Shown here one piece after another: positions 8,818 to 43,439 of a stretch of 43,439 nucleotides of DNA. The translations under genes and the position numbers were made by a program. The stretch lies in IMG/VR virus record IMGVR_UViG_2711768068_000024; one strand, 5' to 3'. How positions within the stretch are numbered: position 1 is the first letter of the stretch; every line of letters starts with the position of its first letter. The notes under the pieces were generated by a model, which saw nothing but the letters and a program-made list of their open reading frames with translations, was not told the DNA's origin and did no database searches. The stretch is from a virus (lineage: Duplodnaviria; Heunggongvirae; Uroviricota; Caudoviricetes).

Positions 8818-9608
8818 AGCGGCGAACCTCCTGATTGGATTAGGCTTCGCCCTATGTTGAAGTGATTGTGCCCGACAAACAGCTAAGTGTAGTTGTACAG
8901 TTATTCACACAAAATGACGGTATTTGTCTACTTGCAGGGATAATCAAAATTATGCTGATTCAGGGGATTCACTGCTCTTATTTGCCGGAAATTTTCTATA
9001 AATGGTAGAAATGCCCACATCAAAAATCAGTGCAATACGCTGTCTTGATTCTCCGGCCTCTAGTAAACGTCCAATCTGTGCCCACTGTTCGGTGGTCAAC
9101 TTAGGACGGCGTCCACCTACTCTGCCTTTGTCGCGAGCTGCAGCAATCCCCGCCCTGGTACGTTCAACTATCAGTTCGCGTTCCATTTCAGCCAGGGCAC
9201 CCATGACATGAAAAAAGAAACGGCCCATTGGGGTACTGGTATCAATACTGTCAGTCAGGCTTCGGAAATTCACGCCACGCTGGCGCAACTCTTCTATCAG
9301 CGTAACAAGATGCCGCATACTGCGTCCCAACCTGTCCAGCTTCCAGACAACCAGCGTGTCACCTGCCGATAGTGTCCTGAGTAGTTTTTTCAGCCCCGGT
9401 CTGTCGGACTTAGTGCCACTGATTTTGTCCTCAAAAATCCGCTCACATCCCGCACAGTTCAGTGCATTGCGTTGCAAATCGGTGTTCTGGTCATTTGTTG
9501 ACACGCGTACATAGCCAATAAGCATGATCATCCCCCTGAATAAAAACCGGAGATGATGCCAGTTAGCCGTTATCTCTGCATTTTCATAAACGTTGGTTTG
9601 GGAGAAGC
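8333..9608. repeat. Left copy of a 1276-bp perfect inverted repeat (5' 485 bp of sheath gene + invertase gene + crossover site)
   Basis: Mirror image of 11137..12412 (left + right coordinate = 20745); identical translations of invertase (193 aa) and sheath N-terminus (160 aa) in both copies; intergenic stretches compared by eye. Confidence 0.85.
8950..9531 (-). CDS. Serine DNA invertase (Hin/Gin/Cin/Pin family)
   Basis: 193 aa from MIMLIGYVRVSTNDQNTDLQ... (resolvase N-terminal catalytic Ser motif), C-terminal HTH; track ORF 8950..9624 has an unlikely N-terminal extension. Confidence 0.9.
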   Translation of the reverse strand: MIMLIGYVRVSTNDQNTDLQRNALNCAGCERIFEDKISGTKSDRPGLKKLLRTLSAGDTLVVWKLDRLGRSMRHLVTLIEELRQRGVNFRSLTDSIDTSTPMGRFFFHVMGALAEMERELIVERTRAGIAAARDKGRVGGRRPKLTTEQWAQIGRLLEAGESRQRIALIFDVGISTIYRKFPANKSSESPESA

Positions 9609-11192: not shown

Positions 11193-12412
11193 CTCCGGTT
11201 TTTATTCAGGGGGATGATCATGCTTATTGGCTATGTACGCGTGTCAACAAATGACCAGAACACCGATTTGCAACGCAATGCACTGAACTGTGCGGGATGT
11301 GAGCGGATTTTTGAGGACAAAATCAGTGGCACTAAGTCCGACAGACCGGGGCTGAAAAAACTACTCAGGACACTATCGGCAGGTGACACGCTGGTTGTCT
11401 GGAAGCTGGACAGGTTGGGACGCAGTATGCGGCATCTTGTTACGCTGATAGAAGAGTTGCGCCAGCGTGGCGTGAATTTCCGAAGCCTGACTGACAGTAT
11501 TGATACCAGTACCCCAATGGGCCGTTTCTTTTTTCATGTCATGGGTGCCCTGGCTGAAATGGAACGCGAACTGATAGTTGAACGTACCAGGGCGGGGATT
11601 GCTGCAGCTCGCGACAAAGGCAGAGTAGGTGGACGCCGTCCTAAGTTGACCACCGAACAGTGGGCACAGATTGGACGTTTACTAGAGGCCGGAGAATCAA
11701 GACAGCGTATTGCACTGATTTTTGATGTGGGCATTTCTACCATTTATAGAAAATTTCCGGCAAATAAGAGCAGTGAATCCCCTGAATCAGCATAATTTTG
11801 ATTATCCCTGCAAGTAGACAAATACCGTCATTTTGTGTGAATAACTGTACAACTACACTTAGCTGTTTGTCGGGCACAATCACTTCAACATAGGGCGAAG
11901 CCTAATCCAATCAGGAGGTTCGCCGCTATGGCTCAGGATTACCACCACGGGGTGCGCGTTGTTGAAATCAACGAAGGCACCCGATCCATTACCACGGTGA
12001 GCACCGCCATCGTGGGTATGGTCTGCACGGGCGATGATGCCGATGCAAAAATGTTTCCTCTTAATAAACCCGTGCTGATCACTGATGTGCTGACTGCCAG
12101 CGGTAAAGCGGGTGAGTCCGGCACGCTGGCCCGTTCGCTGGATGCCATCGCTGACCAGGCAAAACCCGTGACCGTTGTTGTGCGTGTGCCGCAGGGTGAA
12201 ACGGAAGAAGAAACCACGACCAATATCATCGGCGCAGTGACTGCTGAAGGTAAAAAAACAGGCATGAAAGCCCTGTTATCTGCCCAGACACAGCTCGGCG
12301 TTAAACCGCGCATTCTCGGCGTGCCAGGTCACGATAACAAAGCCGTTGCTACTGAGTTGCTGAGTGTGGCGCAAAGCCTGCGTGGGTTTGCTTACCTGTC
12401 AGCGTATGGCTG
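11137..12412. repeat. Right copy of the 1276-bp perfect inverted repeat
   Basis: Reverse complement of 8333..9608; ends mid-codon inside the sheath sequence. Confidence 0.85.
11214..11795 (+). CDS. Serine DNA invertase, second identical copy
   Basis: Translation identical to 8950..9531. Confidence 0.85.
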   Translation: MIMLIGYVRVSTNDQNTDLQRNALNCAGCERIFEDKISGTKSDRPGLKKLLRTLSAGDTLVVWKLDRLGRSMRHLVTLIEELRQRGVNFRSLTDSIDTSTPMGRFFFHVMGALAEMERELIVERTRAGIAAARDKGRVGGRRPKLTTEQWAQIGRLLEAGESRQRIALIFDVGISTIYRKFPANKSSESPESA

Positions 12413-15137: not shown

Positions 15138-15483
15138 TCTCTGCTCCTGTTGATACGGAAAGGGAAACAGGCACACCGTTATTACGCCGCCCGGTCAGCT
15201 CCACCACCATTGAACCGTCAAAATTGCTGTTAATGGTGATGGAATCCAGCGTCAGCCGTGGCTCCCAGCGACTCAGCGCCACATACACTGCCGACATGAC
15301 CTGCAGGCGTAGTGCCGGATTTTGTGGCTGGTCTATCAGTGCCGACAGCAGAGAACCATATTCCCGACGGGCAATGCGGCTACCCTGTGGCGTGATGAGT
15401 ATGTCTTTAACAGACTGATTGAGGTGCTCAATATCGGTAATGGCCTTGCCCGTTGCGCTGTTCATGCCGTAATACATCGTCAT
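15124..15483 (-). CDS. Baseplate protein gpW
   Basis: 119 aa, P2 synteny. Confidence 0.8.
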   Translation of the reverse strand: MTMYYGMNSATGKAITDIEHLNQSVKDILITPQGSRIARREYGSLLSALIDQPQNPALRLQVMSAVYVALSRWEPRLTLDSITINSNFDGSMVVELTGRRNNGVPVSLSVSTGAENGSD

Positions 15484-16058
15484 ACCGGGCCTCCCGATGT
15501 GTCGCCGCCAGACTTCACTTTATTGTGCGCGTGGTCATCCACCACGATCTCGTTGGAACTCATCGGGCCGCCGCCCTGAGTCACACCACCGTTGATCACC
15601 ACCTCACTGTTAATACGGGTGGTGTCGGCTTCCACGATAAACTCCCCGGTTTTGAAGGTGACGTTATCCACCGCCTCGATCACCATGGATTTAATACCCC
15701 GAACGTACCAGCGCCCGGTTTCGGGGTCGTACTCAAACCAACCGCCGTCTGGGTATTCCGTCACGTTGCCGTCCTCAGACTTGGACGGCGGCGGAAACTG
15801 GTTTGAATAGACGGCAGGCAGGGCAAAGGCGGTTTCCAGATTGCCGCCCAGGCTGAACAGCACAACCTGCTCCCCCACAGACGGTTTCCACCAGGTGCGC
15901 GAGTTGCCCGCGCGCAGCGTCAGCCAGTTAATCCAGTTGGTTTCAAGCTCACCCGTTTTCACCCGGCACAGCCAGTTGTCCCGGTCCACTTCCGTTACAG
16001 TTCCGGTGCGGATTAGGTTGGTGATAAGGCGCATGATTTCTGTGAGTTGTGCGTTCAT
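15480..16058 (-). CDS. Baseplate spike/assembly protein gpV
   Basis: 192 aa, P2 synteny. Confidence 0.85.
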   Translation of the reverse strand: MNAQLTEIMRLITNLIRTGTVTEVDRDNWLCRVKTGELETNWINWLTLRAGNSRTWWKPSVGEQVVLFSLGGNLETAFALPAVYSNQFPPPSKSEDGNVTEYPDGGWFEYDPETGRWYVRGIKSMVIEAVDNVTFKTGEFIVEADTTRINSEVVINGGVTQGGGPMSSNEIVVDDHAHNKVKSGGDTSGGPV

Positions 16059-16172
16059 AGCTATAGATTGCCATGAATGATGTATCTAAGAACAAGGTGA
16101 GCTTAGTCTGGTCCATGACACAATTAAGAATTACTATATAAAAATTGTTAACTACTTGGTTGAGAAACAAAC

Positions 16173-17159
16173 ATGAAAAATAAGAACCAGTATCAGGCTT
16201 TACTTAGAGGGAAGGTCGAATCGGCGATTGCTCAAGCCAAAAGTGCTGCAGGATTTTCCCACCAGGGTGTTAAGGGAGCTGTTCTAGAAATATTATTAAG
16301 TCAACTATTTCGACCTCTTTTGCCCGCAGATGTTGGCATTGGCACAGGGCAAATCATTGAACAGTATTCAGGAAAGTTATCACCTCAAATAGATATTATT
16401 ATTTACAATAAATCAATACTCCCTCCGATATTAATCGATGGTGCCACAGGGTTATTCCCAATAGAATCAGTTCTATATACCATTGAGGTAAAAACCACAT
16501 TAAGTTCATCGGAACTCAGCTCTGCACACTCAAGTGCAAAAGAACTTAATGAGAAATTCGGTTACTTACCTGGAATAAAAGATGAATCAGGCAAACTAAT
16601 CCAACACAAAATAGAGAAACTTCGCTCGGTAATATTTGCTCTAAGTAGTGACTTATCACCAAATGGAATTACTGAAGCCGAAAGGTATAAAAAAATATAC
16701 AAAGAAGACTTTCGTTACGTTACAGCAATTTGCGTTGCAGGTCGTGAGTATAGTTATGAAGATCGAGATTGCTGGGTAACAATGCGTAATACTCAAGCGT
16801 ATGATGAAATCCTTGCATTTATTGGAGGCATAACCAATACATACAAAGGTGTTTCAGAAAGTCGTGGGACACCATTGCTAGGATATTACATTGTTCCAGA
16901 GAATGTCGAACTGAGCCTTACAGCTTGTACCACACTCCCGGAATTGCAAGTTAAGTGCACGCAATGCGCTGAAACTAAAAAAATAATCCCCACCTTTGAC
17001 AACGATGATGAACTAATACTAAAAAACTACACTCTTTCTGATAACAAGCCTTGTAAATGTGGTGGGGAATTTAAATCAGAAAAAGGTAATTTCACCATTA
17101 AAAATGGTCGACTGAGAGAAATAGAGTACAACGAGCCAGATCGAATTTACAAAGAGTAA
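16173..17159 (+). CDS. Cargo (moron) protein: possible PD-(D/E)xK-type motif with C-terminal zinc ribbon; function unknown
   Basis: 328-aa AT-rich ORF on the opposite strand between tail genes V and S; N-terminal region has a possible E...D...E-x-K arrangement (LEILL / QIDIIIYNK / TIEVK); C-terminus CTQC...CKCGG. Confidence 0.65.
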   Translation: MKNKNQYQALLRGKVESAIAQAKSAAGFSHQGVKGAVLEILLSQLFRPLLPADVGIGTGQIIEQYSGKLSPQIDIIIYNKSILPPILIDGATGLFPIESVLYTIEVKTTLSSSELSSAHSSAKELNEKFGYLPGIKDESGKLIQHKIEKLRSVIFALSSDLSPNGITEAERYKKIYKEDFRYVTAICVAGREYSYEDRDCWVTMRNTQAYDEILAFIGGITNTYKGVSESRGTPLLGYYIVPENVELSLTACTTLPELQVKCTQCAETKKIIPTFDNDDELILKNYTLSDNKPCKCGGEFKSEKGNFTIKNGRLREIEYNEPDRIYKE

Positions 17160-17173
17160 ATATAACGAAGGAA

Positions 17174-17620
17174 TTAAGGCCTTAGCCATTTATAAACGAC
17201 AGATGCAATTTCATCTTTGTCAGATGAAGTAAAACCTAGTAACAGCCGCTCCGCATAACGTACCTCTGGCCCCCGGCGGCTTACACGATCGCGCAGGCCG
17301 TAATGGTGAACACGGGCAATACGCTGCACCTTACCTTCAAACTGTACGCTGGCAGAGTCGGCGCTGGCGGCAGTTTTCAGGTATTTTGTGGTGCGCAGCT
17401 TTGCAAACATCTGACGTTTGATGCGCCCCTTTTTACTGCGTGCTGTTACCCGTCGAGGTTCATAACTGCTGCCATCTGGATTGCGCTGCATTCTGATATT
17501 CTGCTGCTGTGTCCGGCGCAGTTCCTGCGCCAGCTGGCGCATCATGCGGCTTCTTGCGGCTGGTTCCAGATTCGCCAGCAAAGCACTCAGCCAATCGTCC
17601 ACCTTCTGCAGTTCAGCCAC
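17174..17620 (-). CDS. Tail completion protein gpS
   Basis: 148 aa, P2 synteny. Confidence 0.8.
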   Translation of the reverse strand: MAELQKVDDWLSALLANLEPAARSRMMRQLAQELRRTQQQNIRMQRNPDGSSYEPRRVTARSKKGRIKRQMFAKLRTTKYLKTAASADSASVQFEGKVQRIARVHHYGLRDRVSRRGPEVRYAERLLLGFTSSDKDEIASVVYKWLRP

Positions 17621-25585: not shown

Positions 25586-26326
25586 TTACTCAATAGGTTC
25601 AAACTCATCCTGAGGAATCAGCGTCGATTGACAGGCTTGGCTTAGTACTCCTGATAATTTACATAATAACCGATAGTTATGAGGAGCATCATCGCTAATC
25701 TTTTCGACCGTTAAAGTGATTGATTTTGGATCATCCAATAACATCTTCTTGATATCATTACTTAAATACCTAGGGCAGTAACCAACGATTTCAGCTGGTT
25801 TATCTGCACGAACGACAACAGCATCCCCATCGTATTCATTTTGAAGATCCAAGCAAAGACGCAAAATTTGCCCCGGTTTCAATTCAGATACACGAGCATT
25901 AGCTAAGCTATTTAAGTAACCAAGTCCATGTAAGAAGAAAAAATGCTCAAAGTTACCATCAGAATCAACATCAATTTTTTTGAAAATCTGCAGCTGATCA
26001 GTGCTTCGTAAGCCTCCCGAGCGAGCAAGAATATCGATAGGATTTACCTTATCTTCTTCAAATCCAAGCCATTTAATGAAACTCGGATACTCTGGACGTC
26101 TCGGTGATAAAAGGCGATTTTTAAAAAGAGGAAACAATTCTTCCGAAACATAAGTTTCACGAACATCACTCATGCCGCTAAACTTTGTAAATTTAGTAGA
26201 TTTAAGAGCACCTTTGGTATACCTGAAAACATACCCCGATTTGCGCTCTTGCAAGTTACCAACAACATGCCAGTCTCTGGTATCTGGTGCCTGCCATGCG
26301 ACGTAAACGGAGTTTGTATTAGTCAT
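25586..26326 (-). CDS. HipA-N-terminal-like domain fused to HIRAN-like domain
   Basis: 246 aa; N-terminus VYVAWQ..VVGNL..YVFRY..ELFPLFKNRLL resembles the HipA N-terminal subdomain; C-terminus ILRLCLDLQNEYDGDAVVVRADKPAEIVGYCPRYL fits the HIRAN pattern; 4-nt overlap with the upstream kinase gene. Confidence 0.55.
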   Translation of the reverse strand: MTNTNSVYVAWQAPDTRDWHVVGNLQERKSGYVFRYTKGALKSTKFTKFSGMSDVRETYVSEELFPLFKNRLLSPRRPEYPSFIKWLGFEEDKVNPIDILARSGGLRSTDQLQIFKKIDVDSDGNFEHFFFLHGLGYLNSLANARVSELKPGQILRLCLDLQNEYDGDAVVVRADKPAEIVGYCPRYLSNDIKKMLLDDPKSITLTVEKISDDAPHNYRLLCKLSGVLSQACQSTLIPQDEFEPIE

Positions 26327-27237
26327 TCTAGTAACCTTCTGCGATTTTCCATTACCATTAACGTTGCAAATCTACGTGCACTGTCGGATATACACGATGA
26401 AGGCACTTGGTTAAACACATCTGTAATGGAATCTTCTGTTAAAACGCTCAACTTACCTAACCAATGGTCGCGAGCGGCAACTCTCCCTTCAACTGCATGT
26501 TGAAATGCTTCAACGGTCAGCAAGGGCTTTTTATCAGTTTTTGCTTTGAATAGCTCAGAGCGAGCTTTTCTTACAAAACATGGGATTTGTCGATTTTTAT
26601 CTTTAGTATTAAGCCGTTCGTTACGCTCATCATCTAACATCTCCCTTCCTAAACTAGCGGCATGATCGTATGTTGGACACAAAAACTGCTCACCAGTTTC
26701 ATTGTTAAGCATGATCGCCCAATTTTCATGATGGCGATCTTGATTACTCACAAGTGCATCGAGCATCAAATATCCACAAAATACATCTGCTGCATTTAGC
26801 CCGGTTAGATCATATACACTCGGAGGAGGCTTGATAGATTCCCTATCCAAACAACCCAATACCCTTGTGACAGTGTGTTCTCTGACCCTTACCGGCTTTT
26901 CCCCGGCTTGTAAAGGCCCAGGATAATCGAATGTCGAACTGTGAAGCACTTCATTTCCCATTACCATCCGGAAACCAGATGGAATGATATTCTGAGTCAC
27001 CACACCGAATCGACCATTGTATCGCGCCAAATCATAGCTAGCATGTGGAATGTTAAGCAAATGACATAACTCAGCAGCACACTTTTCAGACCAATGCTCG
27101 CCAGTACCTGGCCTAGAGTACTTAAACAACTGCAAATTTACAGTGTCATCGGAGAAATAGAACCAAAACTTCTCTTTGGTTCCTAACTGTTCAAGATCGT
27201 TAGCTACGGGGCTAAGCTCTACCAATTGGTATGGCAT
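26323..27237 (-). CDS. HipA-like Ser/Thr kinase core (HipT-like, no N-terminal domain)
   Basis: 304 aa; GTKEKFW (P-loop-like), LVSNQDRHHENWAIM (catalytic loop, compare HipA GATDGHAKNFS), PTYDHAASL (metal-binding YD). Confidence 0.7.
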   Translation of the reverse strand: MPYQLVELSPVANDLEQLGTKEKFWFYFSDDTVNLQLFKYSRPGTGEHWSEKCAAELCHLLNIPHASYDLARYNGRFGVVTQNIIPSGFRMVMGNEVLHSSTFDYPGPLQAGEKPVRVREHTVTRVLGCLDRESIKPPPSVYDLTGLNAADVFCGYLMLDALVSNQDRHHENWAIMLNNETGEQFLCPTYDHAASLGREMLDDERNERLNTKDKNRQIPCFVRKARSELFKAKTDKKPLLTVEAFQHAVEGRVAARDHWLGKLSVLTEDSITDVFNQVPSSCISDSARRFATLMVMENRRRLLE

Positions 27238-27387
27238 CTGACATCCCTGTTTAGCGGATTATGAATAAGTTAGGTTCCATTTTATCCAAACATTGCCAAA
27301 TACTCTAAGATTTATTAGATGATAGAGCGATACTGTATGCATGTCCAGCAATCAAATCAATATATAACTCTTATATGACTTAGCGCG

Positions 27388-27410
27388 CGCTCGTATCCCC
27401 GCCACGCCTG
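27388..27410. other. Probable cos site (P2/186-type cohesive end)
   Basis: Bottom strand reads GGCGTGGCGGGGATACGAG, sharing its first 13 nt with the 186-type cos sequence as I recall it; lies in the AT-rich gap between cargo genes, as cos sits next to Q in P2. Confidence 0.45.
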
Positions 27411-27845
27411 CCCGCTTTGTGTAGTGGTTTTCATGCAGTTGCATAACATAAGCAAAAGCTCGTCAGAACTGGCAGGCTTCGACTTAAACGATCCACTAGC
27501 GATCATTCATTTTCATGCAGCATAGGTATGCACCAGAGTTACTTTGAGGTGCAATGGATGATACCTACAGATTTGCTACCCAAGGTCATGCTGAAAATCT
27601 ATCGCATCTGTATGATGCCGCGGACATAGCAAAATCTCCCCATGCAGTGACAAACTACTTGAGTAAATACTGTTGTGTTACCACAAGAAGAGATTTCAAA
27701 AGGAAAACAACGCTATGTTATCTAGTACATATAGCTATAAATGTCTTAATTTTAGCCAATACATTGAATTAAATGAAAAAATACTTTAGTTTGTATACTA
27801 TTTTTTAGCGTTCAAGATTATGCAATTTTTTGGAGAGAACTATAA

Positions 27846-28814
27846 GTGGGATCTTTCAGTTTACTTGCATCACGACCAATACCAACTGTGCTAGAAACAA
27901 GACAGTTTAACTCAGTTAACGGCAGTGACGCCGAATCTTATGCAATGAGTCAATTCATTCTTGCTTGTAGAGGAGAGGGGCACTGGGGTTCCAGGGAAGA
28001 CGACAATTCAAAAATAGATTTAATATTATCCTTCGAACATCCATGGGCATCAAAAGAAAGAATGCTTATATTATCGCAAGTTAAATCAGGGGCAACTTAT
28101 GGTCATTTATTAGAGAAAGGTTTTGTATTAAATTCGGCCGCAAAAAAAGCAGCCAAAAGGACAACTCACCATATATGTGTCGTTTGGGTTGACAGAACTA
28201 ATCGTAAAGCATTTTGGGCCTATATACATCCAAACACTACCCTTAAAAACCAAACTTATGGAGAATATCACTTAATCACTCCGGCCACACGGTTTGACCT
28301 GGCTCGCTGTATGTCCATGGTACGTGCAGGTGAAACTGGAGCAAAAGGAATCCATGTAAGAAGAAGAAACTCACTACTTAATAATCGGCGAGCGTTTGTT
28401 AAAAAACGTTATTCTGAACAGAAAGAAATCACATCTCCGGTGCTTGGGAAAATCGAGCTTACACGGCTGGGTTGGAGACATATGTTCAGAAAGAGTCGCA
28501 GAGAAGAAAACAAAGCAACGAGTTTGGACATTATTCCCTACTTGAGAAATTTACTAGTTCGGTTTCCTTCAACTCATGCTATTACTTCTTCTGATGTCCG
28601 TGATTACGGCTGTTTTACTTACCAAAGAAGAGAGCACTTATTGAAATTTAATAATCTAGAGGTTACTTATGCCAAAGGAGAGGGAAAAAATAAAGTATGT
28701 GCTTATATTCGTGTTATAGAAGAAATAAGGTATCCAAAAGATTGGACTAACGCGGTAATGCTATCACAGCAGGTTGAAAGACGAGTGGTTTTGAAGTCAG
28801 CATATTATAAATAA
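27846..28814 (+). CDS. Hypothetical cargo protein at the tin/old-equivalent position (between cos and gene A)
   Basis: 322-aa AT-rich ORF with GTG start preceded by GGAGAG; basic C-terminal half; weak nuclease-like motif (KIDLILSF ... LSQVK), not confidently assigned. Confidence 0.6.
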   Translation: MGSFSLLASRPIPTVLETRQFNSVNGSDAESYAMSQFILACRGEGHWGSREDDNSKIDLILSFEHPWASKERMLILSQVKSGATYGHLLEKGFVLNSAAKKAAKRTTHHICVVWVDRTNRKAFWAYIHPNTTLKNQTYGEYHLITPATRFDLARCMSMVRAGETGAKGIHVRRRNSLLNNRRAFVKKRYSEQKEITSPVLGKIELTRLGWRHMFRKSRREENKATSLDIIPYLRNLLVRFPSTHAITSSDVRDYGCFTYQRREHLLKFNNLEVTYAKGEGKNKVCAYIRVIEEIRYPKDWTNAVMLSQQVERRVVLKSAYYK

Positions 28815-35201: not shown

Positions 35202-35834
35202 ATGATACATGTAAAGGTTGGAGAGAATACAGGGGGAAGAGAGGCTATCCATAGACTAATGGCAGCCTATGATTTCAAGTCCAGACAGCAACTTTGCGAT
35301 CACTTAGGCGCATCAAAAAGCACCATGGCAAACAGATACTTAAGAGATAGTTTTCCTGCAGAGTGGGTGATTCAGTGCGCCTTGGAAACAGGAGTTTCTT
35401 TACTGTGGCTAACCACCGGACAGGGGGAGCCAGGTTCAAACATTGAACCCCAAAAAAATATCAATTCCGTGAACTCCAGCAAGGTTATACCTCTTTCTGA
35501 ACTAGTATCTCCTGAAATTGACAAGGCGACTCTCAACGGTGGTTTATTGATCGATGCTGGAAAAGCAATCATTGATAGCAGCATACTCCCCTCAGACTCA
35601 AGCAACCTACTGCTGGTGACTACTTCTGGTGATTCTTATTTAATAGATCGCAACCAAACACCACCAGTAAATGGTATGTGGTTAGTCGATATCGACGGGA
35701 TAAAAAGCATTGTTAAATTGACTCGACTCCCGGGAAACAAATTAGTAGTACATCAGGATGATTCATCGTTTGAGTGTGGCCTAGATGACATTGAGGTAGT
35801 AGGCCGCGCACTGAAAATCATTAAGAGCCTTTGA
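35202..35834 (+). CDS. cI: Immunity repressor CI (186-type, N-terminal HTH)
   Basis: 210 aa; HTH segment QQLCDHLGASKSTMANRYLR; immediately followed by int on the same strand as in 186. Confidence 0.75.
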   Translation: MIHVKVGENTGGREAIHRLMAAYDFKSRQQLCDHLGASKSTMANRYLRDSFPAEWVIQCALETGVSLLWLTTGQGEPGSNIEPQKNINSVNSSKVIPLSELVSPEIDKATLNGGLLIDAGKAIIDSSILPSDSSNLLLVTTSGDSYLIDRNQTPPVNGMWLVDIDGIKSIVKLTRLPGNKLVVHQDDSSFECGLDDIEVVGRALKIIKSL

Positions 35835-35835
35835 T

Positions 35836-36852
35836 ATGACCATCAGAAAACAGCCGAACGGAAAATGGTTGTGTGAGTGCTATCCCAATGGACGCAATGG
35901 TAAGCGCGTGCGTAAGCAATTTGCTACGAAAGGCGAAGCCATTGCTTTTGAAAGCTTCACAATGGAAGAAGTGAATAAAAAACCGTGGTTGGGTGAAAAG
36001 GATGATCGGCGACGCCTATCAGAATTAATTGAGCTTTGGTATTCCCTGTATGGTCAGACACTCGCAGACCCCAAGCGCCTCATGGCGAAACTTAGAATTA
36101 TCTGTAATGGTCTAGGCGACCCCATCGCCTCAGAACTGACAGCCGGTGACTTTACGAAATACCGCGAAGCACGGTTAAAAGGTGACGTTCGTAACGAAGA
36201 CGGCACACTAATGTCGCCAGTAAAACCACGCACGGTGAATCTTGAGCAACGTAACCTATCATCGGTTTTTGGCACATTGAAAAAACTAGGCCACTGGTCA
36301 GCACCAAATCCTCTCGCCGGGCTGCCAACATTTAAAATCGCTGAGGGGGAACTGGCGTTCCTGACCTCGGAAGAAATTAAACGTCTGCTAGATGCCTGCG
36401 CTGATTCTCAAAACCCCAGTCTGCTTTTGATTGCAAAAATATGCCTGGCCACCGGCGCACGCTGGAGTGAAGCCGAAAACCTGCAGGGCCATCAGTTATC
36501 TAAATACCGCATCACTTATACCAAGACGAAGGGTAAGAAAAACCGCACCGTGCCGATATCTCAAGATCTGTATGACGAACTCCCCAAGAACAGAGGGAAG
36601 CTATTCACCCCGTGCAGAAAAGCCTTTGAACGAGCAGTAAAGCGAGCTGGCATCGAGCTGCCAGAGGGCCAATGCACTCACGTGCTACGTCATACATTCG
36701 CCAGCCATTTTATGATGAATGGCGGAAACATACTGGTGCTGCGCGATATTCTGGGCCATGCCGATATAAAAATGACGATGATCTATTCTCATTTTTCACC
36801 AGAACACTTAGAAGATGCAGTAACTAAGAATCCTTTAAATTATATTGAGTGA
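35836..36852 (+). CDS. int: Tyrosine integrase (P2/186 family)
   Basis: 338 aa; C-terminal catalytic region (..HVLRHTFASHFMMNGG..LRDILGHADIKMTMIYSH) with the R...H-x-x-R...Y pattern; adjacent to attR. Confidence 0.9.
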   Translation: MTIRKQPNGKWLCECYPNGRNGKRVRKQFATKGEAIAFESFTMEEVNKKPWLGEKDDRRRLSELIELWYSLYGQTLADPKRLMAKLRIICNGLGDPIASELTAGDFTKYREARLKGDVRNEDGTLMSPVKPRTVNLEQRNLSSVFGTLKKLGHWSAPNPLAGLPTFKIAEGELAFLTSEEIKRLLDACADSQNPSLLLIAKICLATGARWSEAENLQGHQLSKYRITYTKTKGKKNRTVPISQDLYDELPKNRGKLFTPCRKAFERAVKRAGIELPEGQCTHVLRHTFASHFMMNGGNILVLRDILGHADIKMTMIYSHFSPEHLEDAVTKNPLNYIE

Positions 36853-37919
36853 AAATCATGTTAAGTGATACTTGTTATACAGTGATTTATATTGCAGCAA
36901 TCGTTTTATTAGTATTTATTACAATAGTAAAAAAATGGTACATGCTTGATAAAAGAAATTTATTTCGTCAGAAATTATTTTGGATTTCAGTTTTAACACC
37001 TTTATTTTCCTTTATCTATTTTGGTTTTTTCACATGGTGGGGAAAAGAACCAGTACTCTCCGCACATGGCTATTCAAGATTTTACGAAATAAGCAAATTC
37101 CCTCTACTATTGCTAGCTAGTGCAGTTCCTTTGGCTTCGATCGTCAACAATATACATCGCACTATACAAACCGAAGCTCAGATCAACACCGCTGAAACGA
37201 AAAATGCAGTCGATAGATATTTAGCACATGAGAAAAACTTTATTGAGAAAACAAAGGAAATATTCGCCTACAATCTTCAAAGCGCGAGAGACTCAGATGG
37301 AAACCTCATTAAATTCAATGGCGAACCAAATATCACTTTGTTTACAGCAGATGAAATTAAAATTTCCAACCCATATCTTTTATATACAAAAATATACAAC
37401 AAATCAAATATAGAGACCACATCTAACTTCACCGCAAACCCTGATTTTTTAGTGCAATTAAAGGAGTACTTAAACACAATTAATAATACTCTGTCGGTTC
37501 AACACTCTATAGATGAATATAATCCATTAAGTTACATGATTCGACTTAACACTTTGTCATATAATACAGCCTCGTTATTAGACCTGATATGTACATCCCC
37601 CATATCTCATGTATACTGTTTGATAAAATATGATGGGTATCAATTAAAAACATTTACACTTGAAGAACAAGTATTCGCCGATATTTTAGAAATATCATAT
37701 CTTCTATCAAGAAAACTAATTCGTTTGATATATAATGAAGATATACCACATTACGACAACATTTATAATTACTTATATGTTGGTAAGTTGAGGTTTAAAT
37801 TCAGAAAACACGCCAATTCTTTACAAGCATTTTCTTCGCAGGAATGGGCTGATTACGTTTCTGAAGCACTAACTCTAGTTCCTAACGAAGTTGGCGGCAC
37901 TTTGGCGGCAGCGCATTAA
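36849..37919 (+). CDS. Membrane-anchored cargo protein of unknown function between int and attR
   Basis: 356-aa very AT-rich ORF (GTG at 36849 or ATG at 36858); three predicted N-terminal TM helices then an Asn/Tyr/Ile-rich soluble domain. Confidence 0.65.
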   Translation: MKIMLSDTCYTVIYIAAIVLLVFITIVKKWYMLDKRNLFRQKLFWISVLTPLFSFIYFGFFTWWGKEPVLSAHGYSRFYEISKFPLLLLASAVPLASIVNNIHRTIQTEAQINTAETKNAVDRYLAHEKNFIEKTKEIFAYNLQSARDSDGNLIKFNGEPNITLFTADEIKISNPYLLYTKIYNKSNIETTSNFTANPDFLVQLKEYLNTINNTLSVQHSIDEYNPLSYMIRLNTLSYNTASLLDLICTSPISHVYCLIKYDGYQLKTFTLEEQVFADILEISYLLSRKLIRLIYNEDIPHYDNIYNYLYVGKLRFKFRKHANSLQAFSSQEWADYVSEALTLVPNEVGGTLAAAH

Positions 37920-38004
37920 AAATTAGTAAAATGGACAAACACTACATAACAATAACGCACTGTTTTTAAATGCAAACTACTGTTTTTGCTATAGTAAAAA
38001 TGGT

Positions 38005-38049
38005 ATGTAGGAATTTCGGACGCGGGTTCAACTCCCGCCAGCTCCACCA
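38005..38049. repeat. attR: second copy of the 45-bp ssrA 3'-end repeat
   Basis: Identical to 1016..1060; followed by a hairpin/T-tract and then the P4-type integrase gene, i.e. the original ssrA 3' flank. Confidence 0.85.
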
Positions 38050-38085
38050 CTTTTTAGTTGTTTGAAGTTCAATGAAGTCTACTAA

Positions 38086-38117
38086 GCCCACACAGCACAA
38101 GCTCTGCGGGCTTTTTT
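38086..38117 (+). terminator. Probable displaced native ssrA terminator
   Basis: Imperfect hairpin GCCCACACAGC..GCTCTGCGGGC followed by TTTTTT. Confidence 0.4.
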
Positions 38118-38172
38118 ACGTCTATTGTCGTCCAGTGAGAATTGCTGAGAACTACGAGTTATGGCACCCTGA

Positions 38173-39444
38173 ATGGGACCCATTAAGAAGGGTCCAAAAA
38201 CCGAGGGTCCCAAAATGGCAAAAATCGCTAAGAAGCTCACTGACACTGAAATCAAAAGCACCAAGCCAGCCGATAAAGAAATCAACTTGTTTGACGGTGA
38301 TGGTCTGATTCTACGAATCGCTCCTTTGGCGAAAGGAGGCAAGAAAAATTGGTATTTCAGGTATGCAGTACCAGTGAGCAAGAAAAGAACCAAAATGAGC
38401 CTTGGGACATATCCTCACCTTACCCTTGCAAGAGCCAGAGCCTTACGTGATGAATATCTCTCCTTTCTGGCAAATGGTGTTGATCCCCAAATCCATAACA
38501 ACGATAAGGCGAAGGCATTAAAGAGTGCTACTGAGCACACTCTCCAAGCCGTAGCGCGGAAATGGTTAGATGAGAAGGTAAAGACATCAGGTATCTCACA
38601 AGACCATGCAGCAGACATCTGGCGCAGCTTAGAGAGAAATGTCTTTCCCGGTCTGGGTAATGTCCCTATCAATGAGATCCGACCTAAGCTCTTAAAACAA
38701 CACCTTGATCCTATTGAGCAACGAGGCGTATTGGAAACTCTACGCCGTATCATTTCACGTCTGAATGAAATCTTCCGGTGGGCAGCTACTGAAGAACTTA
38801 TTGAGTTCAACCCGGCTGACAACCTTGGTCAAAGATTCAGTAAACCAAAAAAGCAAAATATGCCTGCCCTTCCCCCAAGCGAATTGCCAAGGTTTATGGA
38901 ATCTTTGACGAATGCGTCAATCCGGTTGGAAACACGTATGCTAATTGAATGGCAATTGTTGACATGGGTTCGTCCGGGTGAAGCCGTTCGCGCAAGGTGG
39001 TCTGATATTGATACAACCAACAGCATTTGGAACATTCCTGCTGATTTCATGAAAATGAAAAAGCTTCACAAAGTTCCTTTGAGTAAAGAAGCTTTGCGCA
39101 TCCTTGAATTAATGAAATCAATAAGTGGGCATAGAGAATGGGTTTTCCCCAGCATAAAAGCGCCTCTTAATCATATGCATGAACAAACAGCCAACGCAGC
39201 TATCATCCGAATGGGGTTCGGAGGCGAGCTTGTAGCTCACGGTATGCGTTCTATTGCACGAACAGCGGCAGAGGAGTCTGGTAAATTCAGAGCTGAAGTT
39301 CTTGAGGCAGCGCTTGCCCACTCGAAAAAAGATGAAATTATCGCAGCATACAATCGTGCAGAATATCTGATAGAGCGACAGAGTTTGATGCAATGGTGGA
39401 GTGATTACGTTCAAGCTCAAAGATCAAATGCTCTGGTAGCCTAA
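38173..39444 (+). CDS. intA: P4-type tyrosine integrase (IntA/CP4-57 family)
   Basis: 423-aa track ORF; N-terminal KLTDTEIKSTKPADKEINLFDGDGLILRI is the P4-integrase arm-binding pattern; true start may be the Met at 38215. Confidence 0.85.
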   Translation: MGPIKKGPKTEGPKMAKIAKKLTDTEIKSTKPADKEINLFDGDGLILRIAPLAKGGKKNWYFRYAVPVSKKRTKMSLGTYPHLTLARARALRDEYLSFLANGVDPQIHNNDKAKALKSATEHTLQAVARKWLDEKVKTSGISQDHAADIWRSLERNVFPGLGNVPINEIRPKLLKQHLDPIEQRGVLETLRRIISRLNEIFRWAATEELIEFNPADNLGQRFSKPKKQNMPALPPSELPRFMESLTNASIRLETRMLIEWQLLTWVRPGEAVRARWSDIDTTNSIWNIPADFMKMKKLHKVPLSKEALRILELMKSISGHREWVFPSIKAPLNHMHEQTANAAIIRMGFGGELVAHGMRSIARTAAEESGKFRAEVLEAALAHSKKDEIIAAYNRAEYLIERQSLMQWWSDYVQAQRSNALVA

Positions 39445-39482
39445 GTATCAGAATAGCTAATATAATCCTGAAGGTAAAGAAA

Positions 39483-39899
39483 ATGGAAACCCTATTCAAA
39501 GTTTTTGAAAAATTTAGTTCCAGACCACTTTTTTTTATTTTTTTCGGACTCTCACTTTGTGAATTTTTTCAGAAACAATCTGTTCTGATGAATCCATCAG
39601 CAGATAACATCGCGAAATTATTCGCAGCCATGATATTAGTTGTTTTTTTTACTTGGGGATTTGAATGGCTAATCTTCAAGTTCAATGTAAACCTTGAACC
39701 TCATGATCAAGGCGATATTGGACCAACAATTGGAACGGCTACTTTAGCTGTATACTTAGTTTATGCCTTTCACTTTCTCAGTGAAAATCCTGAAGCATTA
39801 AATTTAAAGTTATTAACTAACTCTGGCTTTATATACAGCACAACTCTATTATTATTCTCATTAGAATGCATGAAGCTTAGAAGACTTAAACAAAAATAA
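39483..39899 (+). CDS. Small multi-pass membrane protein, unknown function
   Basis: 138-aa ORF with about four hydrophobic segments; AT-rich; convergent with the kinase/receiver operon. Confidence 0.5.
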   Translation: METLFKVFEKFSSRPLFFIFFGLSLCEFFQKQSVLMNPSADNIAKLFAAMILVVFFTWGFEWLIFKFNVNLEPHDQGDIGPTIGTATLAVYLVYAFHFLSENPEALNLKLLTNSGFIYSTTLLLFSLECMKLRRLKQK

Positions 39900-39970
39900 A
39901 CAACATCATTGTGATGATAAATATAAAATAGGCATGGCGAAAAAAAATCACCACGCCTAAAATATAATAA

Positions 39971-41737
39971 TTATGGTAGCATCATTGATACATAATCCAC
40001 ACCAATCCTTGAGCTATACTGAGACGCTATAGCCTGATATCTTTCTGCATAACCAGTTCTCAGTTGAGATTTAAGTTTGAGTCGGACAGGAACATTTTGC
40101 ACGTTGCCATCCATATTACTTAAAAACACGGCAGAAATAATATTTTTTTCTTCGCCATCAACTGTTGTTCCATGATTCAACACCACCATATAATCAACAA
40201 CAGGAAGCGTTTTATCCCCTTCGAAAATAGAGAGATATTTTCTTTGATTTTTATGCATTACATATATATATTTCGAATGTTCAGCAAATGGCAATGCTTT
40301 ACTCTGACTGGCGTTAAAAAGCTCCAGAACTTTAATGAGCCTGTGCGGACTTAATCTTACATGGTGAGGGTCGTTACCCTGAGTAGGAACCAAATCACAT
40401 GCCGCAGATACACATAAATACCATTTGTTCGACTCTGTATCAAAGAAAATAGTGCCAGTAGAAATATGACCATCTTCAAAATTCTTTGAAGACAAATTCA
40501 TATTTAAAGCATGATACATTTCGTGATAAGTATCATTATTTGATGGCAGATCCATTTTTGAAGAGCAATATTGGAGCAATGCAGCAACTCCGCTGTTAGC
40601 GTATTCATTTGAATAGCTATCAAAAACACTTTTGATAAATTCATCCAGCGTATTATTATTTTTAAGTCTTTGATAAAGCTCTTCTGATAAATTACCAAAT
40701 ACAAAGTCAATATTTCTACATCTAATATCAGGCGAGTCTGATTTTAATATCTCATTTAACCACGCAGCTTGACCGTAATGATCGTTAGCCAAATGATTTA
40801 CAAAAGATAAAGCCTCAGCTTCGATTGCATTCTGAATTTCAGATTTTATTAACTGATAATAAGATGGTTTCCATTCAATGAGAGAATCATTGAGAGTTTG
40901 CCAAATCCTATCTCCATCGTTTTCATGATCATCTTGAACCTTATGAAATAGGGAGACAAAGATATTACCACATTGAATCCATTTTACTCCGCTTTCATCA
41001 CCCCGAATGACATTGCCAGATGTGTTGCTAGAAATAATTGCATTTCTAGACACAGCATATTCTGCAATCATTTTTGCAATGAAGTTTTTATCCTTTTGAT
41101 CCTCCAACACAGCATCATCATGTATTAATCTTTTAATTCTTCTACAAGGCTTACTGTCTTTAATATAGGCTATTGTTTCATCTCTTGTGAGAGCTTTATT
41201 ACCATTATCATTTAAGTTCGGTAATACAACGTCTTCCCAATAACTTTGGACATCTTCATTATCGTAGTCAATGATCAAGCTGTTGATATCCAGAGCACCT
41301 TTGAGAGTCGATGATATCTGCATCCAAACCGTTTCTAAATTCTCTCTAGTATATATTACAATCATATTTAAATGATCGGAGTCTTTCAAATCTTGTAATA
41401 GTTTAAGTGTTTTATCAGGTGCATTATTATCAAGATGATAATCTACAATAATAAGATCTGATTTTCTAATCCGATCCACATCGAAATTAACAGAACCATT
41501 GTCAACATCACAAATCATATTTTTAGATTGAAAAAAGCTCTCAAGAGTAGCGGCTCGTTTAGATGAGTCAATTTTGTTGTAGTCTAAATCAACTTCGTTA
41601 TTCAACGCCCTGATTGATTCAGAATACGTCAGAAAATCGTCATCAATCATGACAACGGAACGAATTGCATTTTCGCAGAAAGTTTTCTGGACAAGAGAAT
41701 TATAATTTGCCACTGTCATATTAGAACTCCACTCCAT
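39971..41737 (-). CDS. Receiver (REC)-like domain fused to a large uncharacterised C-terminal domain
   Basis: N-terminal ~140 aa show receiver hallmarks (VVMIDDD, DLIIVDYHLD, MIVIYT); ~430 further aa unassigned; more likely start is the RBS-preceded ATG at 41719, 1 nt after the kinase stop. Confidence 0.65.
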   Translation of the reverse strand: MEWSSNMTVANYNSLVQKTFCENAIRSVVMIDDDFLTYSESIRALNNEVDLDYNKIDSSKRAATLESFFQSKNMICDVDNGSVNFDVDRIRKSDLIIVDYHLDNNAPDKTLKLLQDLKDSDHLNMIVIYTRENLETVWMQISSTLKGALDINSLIIDYDNEDVQSYWEDVVLPNLNDNGNKALTRDETIAYIKDSKPCRRIKRLIHDDAVLEDQKDKNFIAKMIAEYAVSRNAIISSNTSGNVIRGDESGVKWIQCGNIFVSLFHKVQDDHENDGDRIWQTLNDSLIEWKPSYYQLIKSEIQNAIEAEALSFVNHLANDHYGQAAWLNEILKSDSPDIRCRNIDFVFGNLSEELYQRLKNNNTLDEFIKSVFDSYSNEYANSGVAALLQYCSSKMDLPSNNDTYHEMYHALNMNLSSKNFEDGHISTGTIFFDTESNKWYLCVSAACDLVPTQGNDPHHVRLSPHRLIKVLELFNASQSKALPFAEHSKYIYVMHKNQRKYLSIFEGDKTLPVVDYMVVLNHGTTVDGEEKNIISAVFLSNMDGNVQNVPVRLKLKSQLRTGYAERYQAIASQYSSRIGVDYVSMMLP

Positions 41738-43439
41738 TGAACTGGATCACAAAATTAGCGCCATCTTTTATTAAATAGTTATCGCCTTCATCAGGTTCTG
41801 AATACCATATTTTATGATGTGCAACAGCAAGGTTTTCTCGACATAGATACAGACCTACCCCATGTCCATTTGCTCTTTTGCTATAAAATAGTTCAAATAG
41901 TCGCGGGATATCATCGGTATCAATTGCCGGACCAGAATTTGCTATGATAACCAAAGAATTCACAAAACCAATCTTTATGAGCCTATTATTTGACAGACTG
42001 ACCCAATACATTGCATTGTTGATAATATTAGTAAAAACAGGATAGATCCTTGATGGTATATCTGTTATTGCGATTTGCTTAAACTCTTCACTAAATTCAA
42101 TAGTTATTCGTTGCCGTTCGAAACGCTCCCCAAAGAACTTCAGGACATAATCCATGATATTTTTTCCAGTTATTCTCTGCCTGGATTGATAACCTGATAT
42201 TTTCAAAGGTGATAAGAAACGTATTTGTTGAGTAAGCGATCTGTGAGCATTTAACGCCAATGAAAAACCAGGGTGTTCTTTTACAGAAGTAGGAAGAGAG
42301 TTTAGTCCTCTGGTTACCATAGAATCCATTTCTTCAAGTTCATGAGATATTATCTCAACACTAATACCTAACTGTGCAAGCGCGTTTAAACTTTTAGCTT
42401 TTTCTTCAAAATATGAGCGTTCTTCTTCAGATAATGAGAATGCTGAATCTAAGTTTATACCTTCAAATAATCCATCGAGACCTTTTATTATTGATTGATA
42501 TTTGAAAGTTAGGGTATCAACTGACTCAACATATAAACTATCGAGCAAATTAAACACATTTTCAATTTGTGAATCATTATCTATTGAATCAACAACTGAT
42601 ATAGTTTTAGCATAATAATCACTTCGATCAACCTTTATTTCATCGGCCCATTTTTTTAAAAGAGAATGTATCTTCTCCTCTATCGTGTTATTAAACTTAG
42701 TTAGTTTAGAATTAATAATACCTTGATTTTTTTCAAGGTGATTTTTCGCTGACAATGAAGGCTCAAGTTTATTTAATTCAGAATCAAGTTTATTAATTGC
42801 TAACTTCATTTGTAGAATATACGCAGAGAACTCATTAAATTTATCTCTGTAGTCTCTATATTTCTCTTCATACATTCCAAGTTTTGGAGGTTTGATAGGC
42901 GTTTTAATTTCACTGCGCAACGCATCTAAGTTTGTAAGATCACTGTCTATAATTTTAAGATAGTTTAAATCTAACGAACCATCAGTTTTATCAAGCTTAG
43001 TTTTCAGCCTTTTAACAGCCTCCAAGGAAGCATCAAGAACTGGTGTCTGATTCTTCAAAGCTTCTGAAAAACTTTTTTGTGTTGATTTTCGAGCTTGTTG
43101 TTGAGCAGATTTTCTTAACTCTTTTTCACGCTTAACTTGTTCTAAAAGCTCTTTACGGTCATCAGAACGTGAACCAAAAAATCTATCAGCAAGTTCAGTT
43201 AACAAATTAGATATAATAGTTTTCAGTTCTCTTGCAGCCTGGTTTCTTATGAATCCCTCTCTCCCCGACTTATCTTTCAGCTCTTTATTACTGGATTGAG
43301 TAATTCCAATATAACCAAAAATCCTTCTATTAGACCAATAATATCGCCCTGCATTCCATGAACGTCTTTCTTCTATCTGGAAGAAATCATTATCTACTCG
43401 ACCATAAGGTAATACTCTCAAGCTATCCCTAAAAATCAT
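41721..43439 (-). CDS. Histidine-kinase-like protein (H-box + HATPase_c), 5' end probably outside the window
   Basis: ISHELEEMD (H-box), FTNIINNAMYW (N-box), NSGPAIDTDD and GHGVGLYL (G-boxes) in canonical order at the C-terminus; long K/E-rich N-terminal region without TM segments; ORF open to the window edge. Confidence 0.75.
   Translation of the reverse strand: MIFRDSLRVLPYGRVDNDFFQIEERRSWNAGRYYWSNRRIFGYIGITQSSNKELKDKSGREGFIRNQAARELKTIISNLLTELADRFFGSRSDDRKELLEQVKREKELRKSAQQQARKSTQKSFSEALKNQTPVLDASLEAVKRLKTKLDKTDGSLDLNYLKIIDSDLTNLDALRSEIKTPIKPPKLGMYEEKYRDYRDKFNEFSAYILQMKLAINKLDSELNKLEPSLSAKNHLEKNQGIINSKLTKFNNTIEEKIHSLLKKWADEIKVDRSDYYAKTISVVDSIDNDSQIENVFNLLDSLYVESVDTLTFKYQSIIKGLDGLFEGINLDSAFSLSEEERSYFEEKAKSLNALAQLGISVEIISHELEEMDSMVTRGLNSLPTSVKEHPGFSLALNAHRSLTQQIRFLSPLKISGYQSRQRITGKNIMDYVLKFFGERFERQRITIEFSEEFKQIAITDIPSRIYPVFTNIINNAMYWVSLSNNRLIKIGFVNSLVIIANSGPAIDTDDIPRLFELFYSKRANGHGVGLYLCRENLAVAHHKIWYSEPDEGDNYLIKDGANFVIQFNGVEF

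Follow-up and report, generated by a model that had tools for sequence, protein, structure and literature searches.

A standalone NucC-fold DUF6602 nuclease with a zinc ribbon as probable anti-phage cargo of a P2-like prophage

In this study, we identified a foreign, horizontally acquired gene in a P2-like prophage that encodes a DUF6602 protein, in which a nuclease domain with the NucC fold is followed by a C-terminal zinc ribbon. The gene stands alone between the baseplate gene V and the tail-completion gene S in the window, by which we mean the whole analysed stretch of 43,439 nucleotides (Table 1). NucC is the textbook second-messenger-activated immune nuclease. Here, its fold and active site recur in a large clade that lacks the cA3 contacts and is carried as one-gene cargo of P2 phages, a P4-like satellite, integrons and islands. 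We consider it probable that the protein is a self-contained anti-phage nuclease that is not gated by cA3 and was acquired as cargo of the slot between the two tail operons.

Table 1 Features of the window (positions count from its first nucleotide)
Feature	Position	Strand	Basis or remark
Cargo gene, 328-aa DUF6602 NucC-fold nuclease with C-terminal zinc ribbon	16173..17159	+	ORF, ATG start, PF20247
Nuclease domain, aa 1-240, NucC-sized restriction-endonuclease fold	16173..16892	+	Motif match, Foldseek
Catalytic codons (predicted)	E39 16287-9; D74 16392-4; E105 16485-7; K107 16491-3	+	
Codons at the NucC cA3-contact positions, replaced	D53 16329-31; I82 16416-8	+	HMMER and MAFFT alignments
C-terminal zinc-ribbon domain, aa 247-320	16911..17132	+	
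Zinc-ribbon Cys codons	16956-8, 16965-7, 17052-4, 17058-60	+	
Baseplate gene V (gpV-like), first of the V operon	15480..16058	-	PF04717 Phage_base_V in near-identical loci
Tail-completion gene S (gpS-like), last of the O operon	17174..17620	-	PF05069 Phage_tail_S in near-identical loci
P_V-type late-activator dyad AGT-N12-ACA, backbone rather than cargo	16105..16122	-	Fels-2/RE2010 comparison, P2 record
Cargo-specific upstream region	16125..16172	+	
Candidate sigma-70-like promoter	-35 ATGACA 16115-16120, 16-nt spacer, -10 TATAAA 16137-16142	+	Read from the sequence
PDC-M03B, PADLOC candidate defence pair	25586-26326	-	E 3e-93, HIRAN domain
PDC-M03A, PADLOC candidate defence pair	26323-27237	-	E 2e-122, weak HipA_C kinase similarity
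Prophage CI repressor and integrase	35202-36852		
Second tyrosine integrase	38173-39444		
Response_reg_2 (PF19192) gene	39971-41737		Convergent with the HEF_HK gene
HEF_HK + HATPase_c gene	41721-43439		Convergent with the Response_reg_2 gene

A foreign gene in the gap between two tail operons

An earlier note on this DNA had described a 328-aa ORF on the opposite strand between V and S, and the gene (987 bp) is present exactly as claimed. Its AT-richness, also pointed out there, is pronounced: the GC content is 0.381, against 0.577 in V, 0.537 in S and 0.547 in the remaining structural region, and GC3 is 0.29 compared with 0.72 in V. In near-identical loci, the full P2 late-gene order surrounds the V and S flanks. 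A search with the cargo protein found 298 homologues, the best of which is from Salmonella enterica (99% identity, E = 2.7e-213), and the ORF is therefore not a chance ORF. An identical protein, named "DUF6602 domain-containing protein" by PGAP, occurs in 3 of 5426 complete E. coli genomes.

The earlier note located the gene correctly at the S/V junction but took it to interrupt a contiguous operon, which it does not. The P2 record gives the order S, putative O-operon terminator, Orf30 on the opposite strand, P_V activator-binding site and V, with the P_V transcription start annotated at the V start codon. In P2, the S/V slot thus lies between the terminator of the O operon and the activator site of P_V, and a gene placed there breaks no operon. 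The layout of the window matches the P2 record. The cargo fills the inter-operon gap from roughly 16125 to 17173, in agreement with the ~1,047 bp length difference from phages with an empty S/V slot.

The contents of the slot vary among P2-like phages. Fels-2 has a gap of 68 bp, Salmonella phage RE-2010 carries an unrelated 283-aa gene, P2 carries Orf30, and the window has the DUF6602 gene. The opposite-strand gene orf30, which the earlier note placed at S/V in P2, is confirmed by the P2 record and is nonessential. Orf30 and the cargo share the slot and the orientation, after the O operon and before the P_V activator site, whereas the two proteins are unrelated (BLASTP E 0.72) and Orf30 has no PADLOC match. 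The opposite-strand gene of RE-2010 (locus L100 975-1826) has no Pfam or PADLOC match either and is a further candidate for uncharacterised cargo. The gap between the operons at S/V (orf30) is a recurrent cargo slot used by at least three unrelated genes, and it complements the well-studied gpA-gpQ hotspot, the only one analysed by Rousset et al. 2022. Accessory and defence hotspots among the P2 tail genes, which hold 16% of P2 defence systems and lie downstream of gpL, have been described in the recent literature. The DUF6602 family is mentioned neither in Rousset et al. 2022 nor in the paper on the P2 tail-gene hotspots.

On the V side of the cargo, a P_V-type dyad is centred 55 nt upstream of the V ATG. 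Fels-2 and RE-2010 have perfect TGT-N12-ACA dyads at the homologous position, and the window has a single mismatch (AGT for TGT). This dyad is kept upstream of V regardless of which cargo fills the slot. Judged by its letters, ATGACA-N16-TATAAA is a plausible promoter of the cargo gene, and its -35 hexamer overlaps the backbone dyad. A consensus promoter scan missed the TATAAA because it demands a T at position 6 of the -10 hexamer. The cargo and S are convergent, with their stop codons 14 bp apart. No intrinsic terminator was detected in this gap (17160-17173), where P2 has the annotated O-operon terminator.

Fold and active site of the nuclease domain

The Pfam profile DUF6602 (PF20247) matches aa 25-126 of the cargo protein at 77.1 bits against a cut-off of 27, and the match covers profile positions 4-102 of 104. 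The best PADLOC match is the CRISPR-associated PD_DExK model (6.6e-32), and the NucC effector model matches at 7e-14 over aa 6-216. NucC (PDB 6p7o, 6p7p, 6q1h, 6uxf and 7zgv) is a cA3-activated endonuclease effector of type III CBASS and of some type III CRISPR systems.

The earlier note had suspected a PD-(D/E)xK nuclease core in the N-terminal third, and the predicted structure agrees with this. An AlphaFold (AF2) monomer model of the cargo protein (pLDDT 85, pTM 0.84) has a restriction-endonuclease-like fold with the embellishments specific to NucC, and the top 14 Foldseek matches in the PDB are all NucC (E 2e-11 to 1.5e-9), followed by a next best match at E 0.02. The alignments to NucC extend over 200-259 columns on chains of 221-246 residues, with TM (target) of 0.62-0.73. 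The segments singled out by the earlier note all carry predicted catalytic residues: LEILL contains E39, QIDIIIYNK contains D74, and TIEVK contains E105 and K107. The string I73-D74-x30-E105-V-K107 corresponds to the NucC active-site motif IDx30EAK (Lau et al.) and is invariant in 30/30 aligned sequences, an alignment of homologues with identities as low as 49%. H30, K34 and E39 are also invariant in this alignment.

The next Foldseek matches are weak (E 0.02-0.4, TM about 0.24) and are type IIF restriction endonucleases, namely NgoMIV, Bse634I/Cfr10I and SgrAI, which belong to the PD-(D/E)xK superfamily branch that also contains NucC. The activity of type IIF enzymes depends on oligomerisation. 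The cargo protein differs from them in having no methyltransferase partner, and sequence specificity is not in evidence for it. No methyltransferase gene is present in any of the gene contexts examined, which sets the cargo apart from type II restriction-modification.

The positions that contact cA3 in NucC

NucC holds cA3 through Arg53, Tyr81, Thr226 and the main chain of Val227, and mutation of any of Arg53, Tyr81 and Thr226 abolishes activation (Lau et al.). The ligand is covered by a gate loop, for which His136 and Tyr141 serve as the latch (Lau et al.). In the cargo protein, Arg53 is replaced by D53 and Tyr81 by I82, according to HMMER alignments against four solved NucCs and a MAFFT alignment. 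D53 and I82 are invariant in the alignment of 30 homologues, whereas the four solved NucCs have R and Y/F at the two positions. About 40 relatives of NucC size in a wider alignment retain P-x-R-Y and Y/F there, which the cargo family and an intermediate group do not. Among the 148 nearest cluster representatives, three have Arg at position 53 and none has Tyr at position 82, while the catalytic residues are kept.

The regions of NucC containing Thr226/Val227 and the gate loop have no sequence similarity to the cargo protein and hence no residue alignment. The model predicts a beta-hairpin at aa 129-150 (pLDDT 74-77) with near-invariant Y131 and H145, which may correspond in position to the gate loop. 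The motif N222-T223-Y224...R231 is invariant in the family alignment. The hairpin and this motif could form a pocket for a different small molecule.

These features bear on the possibility that the protein is an orphan second-messenger effector, whose remodelled pocket would sense cyclic oligonucleotides made by CBASS or type III CRISPR systems of the host, or another nucleotide derived from infection. The NucC-sized core, the hairpin predicted where NucC has its gate loop, the near-invariant or invariant Y131, H145, T223, Y224 and R231, and the best PADLOC match to a CRISPR-associated PD_DExK model are all in line with such a role. However, the change of Arg53 to Asp reverses the charge at a phosphate contact, and Tyr81 has become Ile. 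No CD-NTase or Cas10 cyclase is located nearby in about 25 contexts (P2, P4-like, integron and island), and ten ORFs from AT-rich regions of the window have no cyclase-family match in Pfam and PADLOC scans. Furthermore, a prophage that moves between hosts could not depend on a cyclase of the host. We regard an orphan effector as quite improbable.

The assignment of the cargo protein to NucC itself was rejected. The fold and the active site are retained, but two defining features of NucC are missing, the pocket residues Arg53 and Tyr81 and a neighbouring cyclase gene, which places the protein outside the NucC family.

The zinc ribbon and the structure of the family

The C-terminal Cys cluster noticed earlier has the arrangement of a zinc ribbon, with two Cys pairs (C262/C265 in CTQC and C294/C296 in CKCGG) on beta-hairpin knuckles, and these residues are invariant in the 30 homologues. 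The mean pairwise identity is 34% in the zinc ribbon, compared with 62% in aa 1-240 and 70% in aa 28-128. Structural comparison of the domain gave no informative match, and the domain does not resemble known modified-base readers. In three Enterobacter sequences that have diverged from one another, and in one Iodobacter sequence, the chain stops right at the domain boundary, and a 252-aa Enterobacter form lacking the zinc ribbon occupies the S/V slot of P2-like prophages (loci L105/L106 5001-5759). The existence of such natural variants indicates that the zinc ribbon is a modular add-on and that it cannot be the sole sensor of a trigger.

An exhaustive profile search returned 4395 cluster representatives at E <= 1e-3, of which 237 reach E <= 1e-30. 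Among the best 150 of the 4395, only about a dozen have alignments that extend through the zinc ribbon. The remainder of the best 150 are proteins of 230-260 aa that match over the core only, with 150-290 bits compared with <= 47 bits for the solved NucCs. Within a large clade of standalone, NucC-like nucleases that lack the cA3 pocket, the form with the zinc ribbon thus makes up one sub-branch. These results support the interpretation of the earlier note, a nuclease-type cargo gene with a zinc ribbon, and sharpen the identity of the protein to a standalone NucC-fold DUF6602 nuclease without the cA3 contacts.

The zinc ribbon is also central to a restriction-like alternative, in which a constitutive nuclease, either type IV-like or sparing its own DNA, would cut incoming (e.g., modified) phage DNA that the zinc ribbon recognises, with no switch and no abortive infection. 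The fold is related to that of the type IIF enzymes NgoMIV, Bse634I and SgrAI, which come after NucC in Foldseek; a single gene that lacks a methyltransferase in every context is what would be expected of a modification-dependent enzyme; and the C-terminal domain varies as a specificity domain might. We nevertheless consider this alternative unlikely, because the zinc ribbon is unlike known modified-base readers, variants without it persist in the same slot, and the defence of the Damona type (see below) has been published as abortive infection. NucC, moreover, is largely sequence-nonspecific and is regulated by assembly (Lau et al.).

Genomic contexts and distribution

DUF6602 genes are located in the S/V slot of P2-like prophages in six genera: Salmonella, E. 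coli, Kluyvera, Cronobacter, Enterobacter and Janthinobacterium. The S/V-slot homologues from Kluyvera, Cronobacter, a metagenomic enterobacterium and Janthinobacterium are 51-62% identical to the cargo protein. In the P2-like prophage of Janthinobacterium, which belongs to the Betaproteobacteria, a 51%-identical homologue lies between S and V on the same strand as the tail genes (L010 7297-9723). Only tail genes are neighbours of the DUF6602 gene in the P2 contexts.

Outside the P2-like phages, the family occupies other kinds of mobile elements. The abundant homologue of Enterobacter hormaechei is in a P4-like satellite island adjoining smpB. The homologue of Vibrio diabolicus is an integron cassette bracketed by attC-like repeats. 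The Ralstonia homologue is in an integrative element with HNH and DUF2971 genes, the Microbulbifer homologue is in an island with TIR and NYN genes, and the Marinomonas homologue is beside a YoeB/Phd pair. A comparison of 20 non-P2 contexts found not one neighbouring gene family common to them. In the E. hormaechei island (L080-L085 4823-9280), the neighbours of the DUF6602 gene are a 214-aa ORF that matches no family and a gene for a 436-aa ORC/CDC6-like ATPase. Both may likewise belong to the uncharacterised cargo of this satellite hotspot.

Two alternatives can be weighed against this distribution. The first is a housekeeping function in the phage or the host, for example as a recombination or repair nuclease (RmuC-like) or in the degradation of host DNA during lytic growth. 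DUF6602 has been described as a distant relative of RmuC, and the gene does sit within a phage. However, it is missing from most related phages, and the family is essentially absent from the sequenced phages of INPHARED. It is transcribed against the late genes from an upstream region that is not of the late type, it is found in cargo slots of non-phage mobile elements, and it is rare in E. coli, as the genome counts given above show. A housekeeping function thus appears very improbable.

The second alternative is a free-standing homing endonuclease, a selfish element that would have inserted between conserved phage genes and would spread by cleaving S/V junctions that are still empty. Such an element would fit the solo, AT-rich nuclease gene, its intergenic position and its presence/absence polymorphism among related phages, and also the reuse of the exact junction in distant P2-like phages. 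Against it, the family also resides in a P4-like satellite, an integron cassette and chromosomal islands, the S/V slot also holds unrelated genes, the orientation is reversed in Janthinobacterium, and the nuclease core is strongly conserved, unlike that of decaying homing genes. Among the alternatives considered, we find this one the hardest to credit.

Other features of the window

The P2 tin/old hotspot (25586-28814, between the portal gene Q and the replication gene A) is AT-rich and includes the candidate defence pair PDC-M03A and PDC-M03B (Table 1). It also contains a 322-aa ORF (27846-28814, plus strand) that has no Pfam or PADLOC match.

Beyond the CI repressor and integrase of the prophage, the window is very AT-rich (36849-43439, GC 0.32-0.37). 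In addition to the second tyrosine integrase and the convergent Response_reg_2 and HEF_HK genes listed in Table 1, this region includes ORFs of 356 aa and 138 aa without an assigned function. It looks like a second integrated island adjoining the prophage, and it is possibly a conflict system.

At 8894-8911 and 11834-11851, TGTACAGTTATTCACACA and its reverse complement form an inverted repeat of 18 nt without a mismatch. The two copies bracket a tail-fibre/assembly region of about 2.9 kb, and the homologous Salmonella locus has resolvase/invertase genes at its tail-fibre region. The repeats and these genes suggest that the tail-fibre region between them is an invertible segment.

Proposed mechanism

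We propose that the cargo gene provides a signal-independent, one-protein defence. The lysogen would express the nuclease from the candidate promoter of the cargo itself. The residues 1-240 would form a NucC-type (type IIF-like) PD-(D/E)xK DNA endonuclease with an intact predicted catalytic site. With an invariant Asp and Ile in place of two of the three cA3-binding side chains of NucC, and with no accompanying cyclase, the nuclease is presumably not switched on by cA3. NucC is a homotrimer that forms a hexamer upon activation. If the cargo protein behaves like NucC and the type IIF enzymes, it would cleave DNA only in a higher-order assembly that juxtaposes active sites, and this assembly may be set off directly by a cue from infection. 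The strongest candidate for a sensing, DNA-binding or regulatory module is the fast-evolving zinc ribbon. The outcome would be the destruction of either the incoming phage DNA or all DNA, the latter amounting to abortive infection or growth arrest, and the lysogen population would thereby be protected from competing phages.

A defensive role is supported by the slots in which the family is found, in P2-like prophages, a P4-like satellite, an integron cassette and integrative islands. It is also supported by the precedent of Damona, in which a cassette of one DUF6602 gene gives protection from phages.

A more far-reaching proposal, which we put forward tentatively as a possibility, is that a NucC-type effector has been turned into its own sensor. 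The DUF6602 clade (the 237 representatives at E <= 1e-30) would have dropped control by cyclic nucleotides, and a phage component would trigger the assembly directly. If this is true, the zinc-ribbon subfamily has gained, in addition, a recognition domain that diversifies rapidly, an evolutionary route connects the signalling-dependent effectors of CBASS and type III CRISPR with one-protein immune sensors, and the defence of the Damona type gains a mechanism. The clade bears on the control of an assembly-gated nuclease in the absence of a signal and on what is sensed by systems of the Damona type.

Comparison with known systems

Damona, which V. cholerae N16961 carries as an integron cassette of one anti-phage gene (Darracq et al., bioRxiv 10.1101/2024.07.02.601686, Science 2025), was the only characterised DUF6602 protein in the literature searched. 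Darracq et al. reported that it carries DUF6602, which they described as distantly related to RmuC, that it cross-matches Cas PD_DExK and a small CBASS endonuclease, and that its homologues are found in prophages and integron cassettes. A later preprint calls Damona poorly understood and states that it acts by abortive infection. By description only, the cargo gene resembles Damona in being a single gene with DUF6602 and with cross-matches to PD_DExK and to a small CBASS endonuclease, and homologues of both are present in prophages and integron cassettes. A fusion to a zinc ribbon, in contrast, has not been described for Damona. No V. cholerae protein is among the 120 best relatives of the cargo protein, and Damona is therefore probably a more distant, NucC-sized member of DUF6602 without the zinc ribbon. 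At the domain level, the cargo protein appears to be of the Damona type, the link being the shared Pfam domain and a comparison by description. Most likely, the cargo serves as an anti-phage defence of one gene that is related to this type.

With NucC, the cargo protein has in common an upstream H-x-G-x-K-G-x3-E motif and a core of equal size (about 240 aa), and NucC is the sole significant structural match of the cargo model (Foldseek E about 1e-11). It differs from NucC in its additional zinc-ribbon domain of about 85 aa and in sequence, the similarity detected by HMMER being confined to aa 20-130. The kind of protein is thus a known one, that of Damona-type and NucC-like defence nucleases. 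What is new is the architecture, in which a standalone NucC-fold DUF6602 nuclease without the cA3 pocket is combined with a zinc ribbon.
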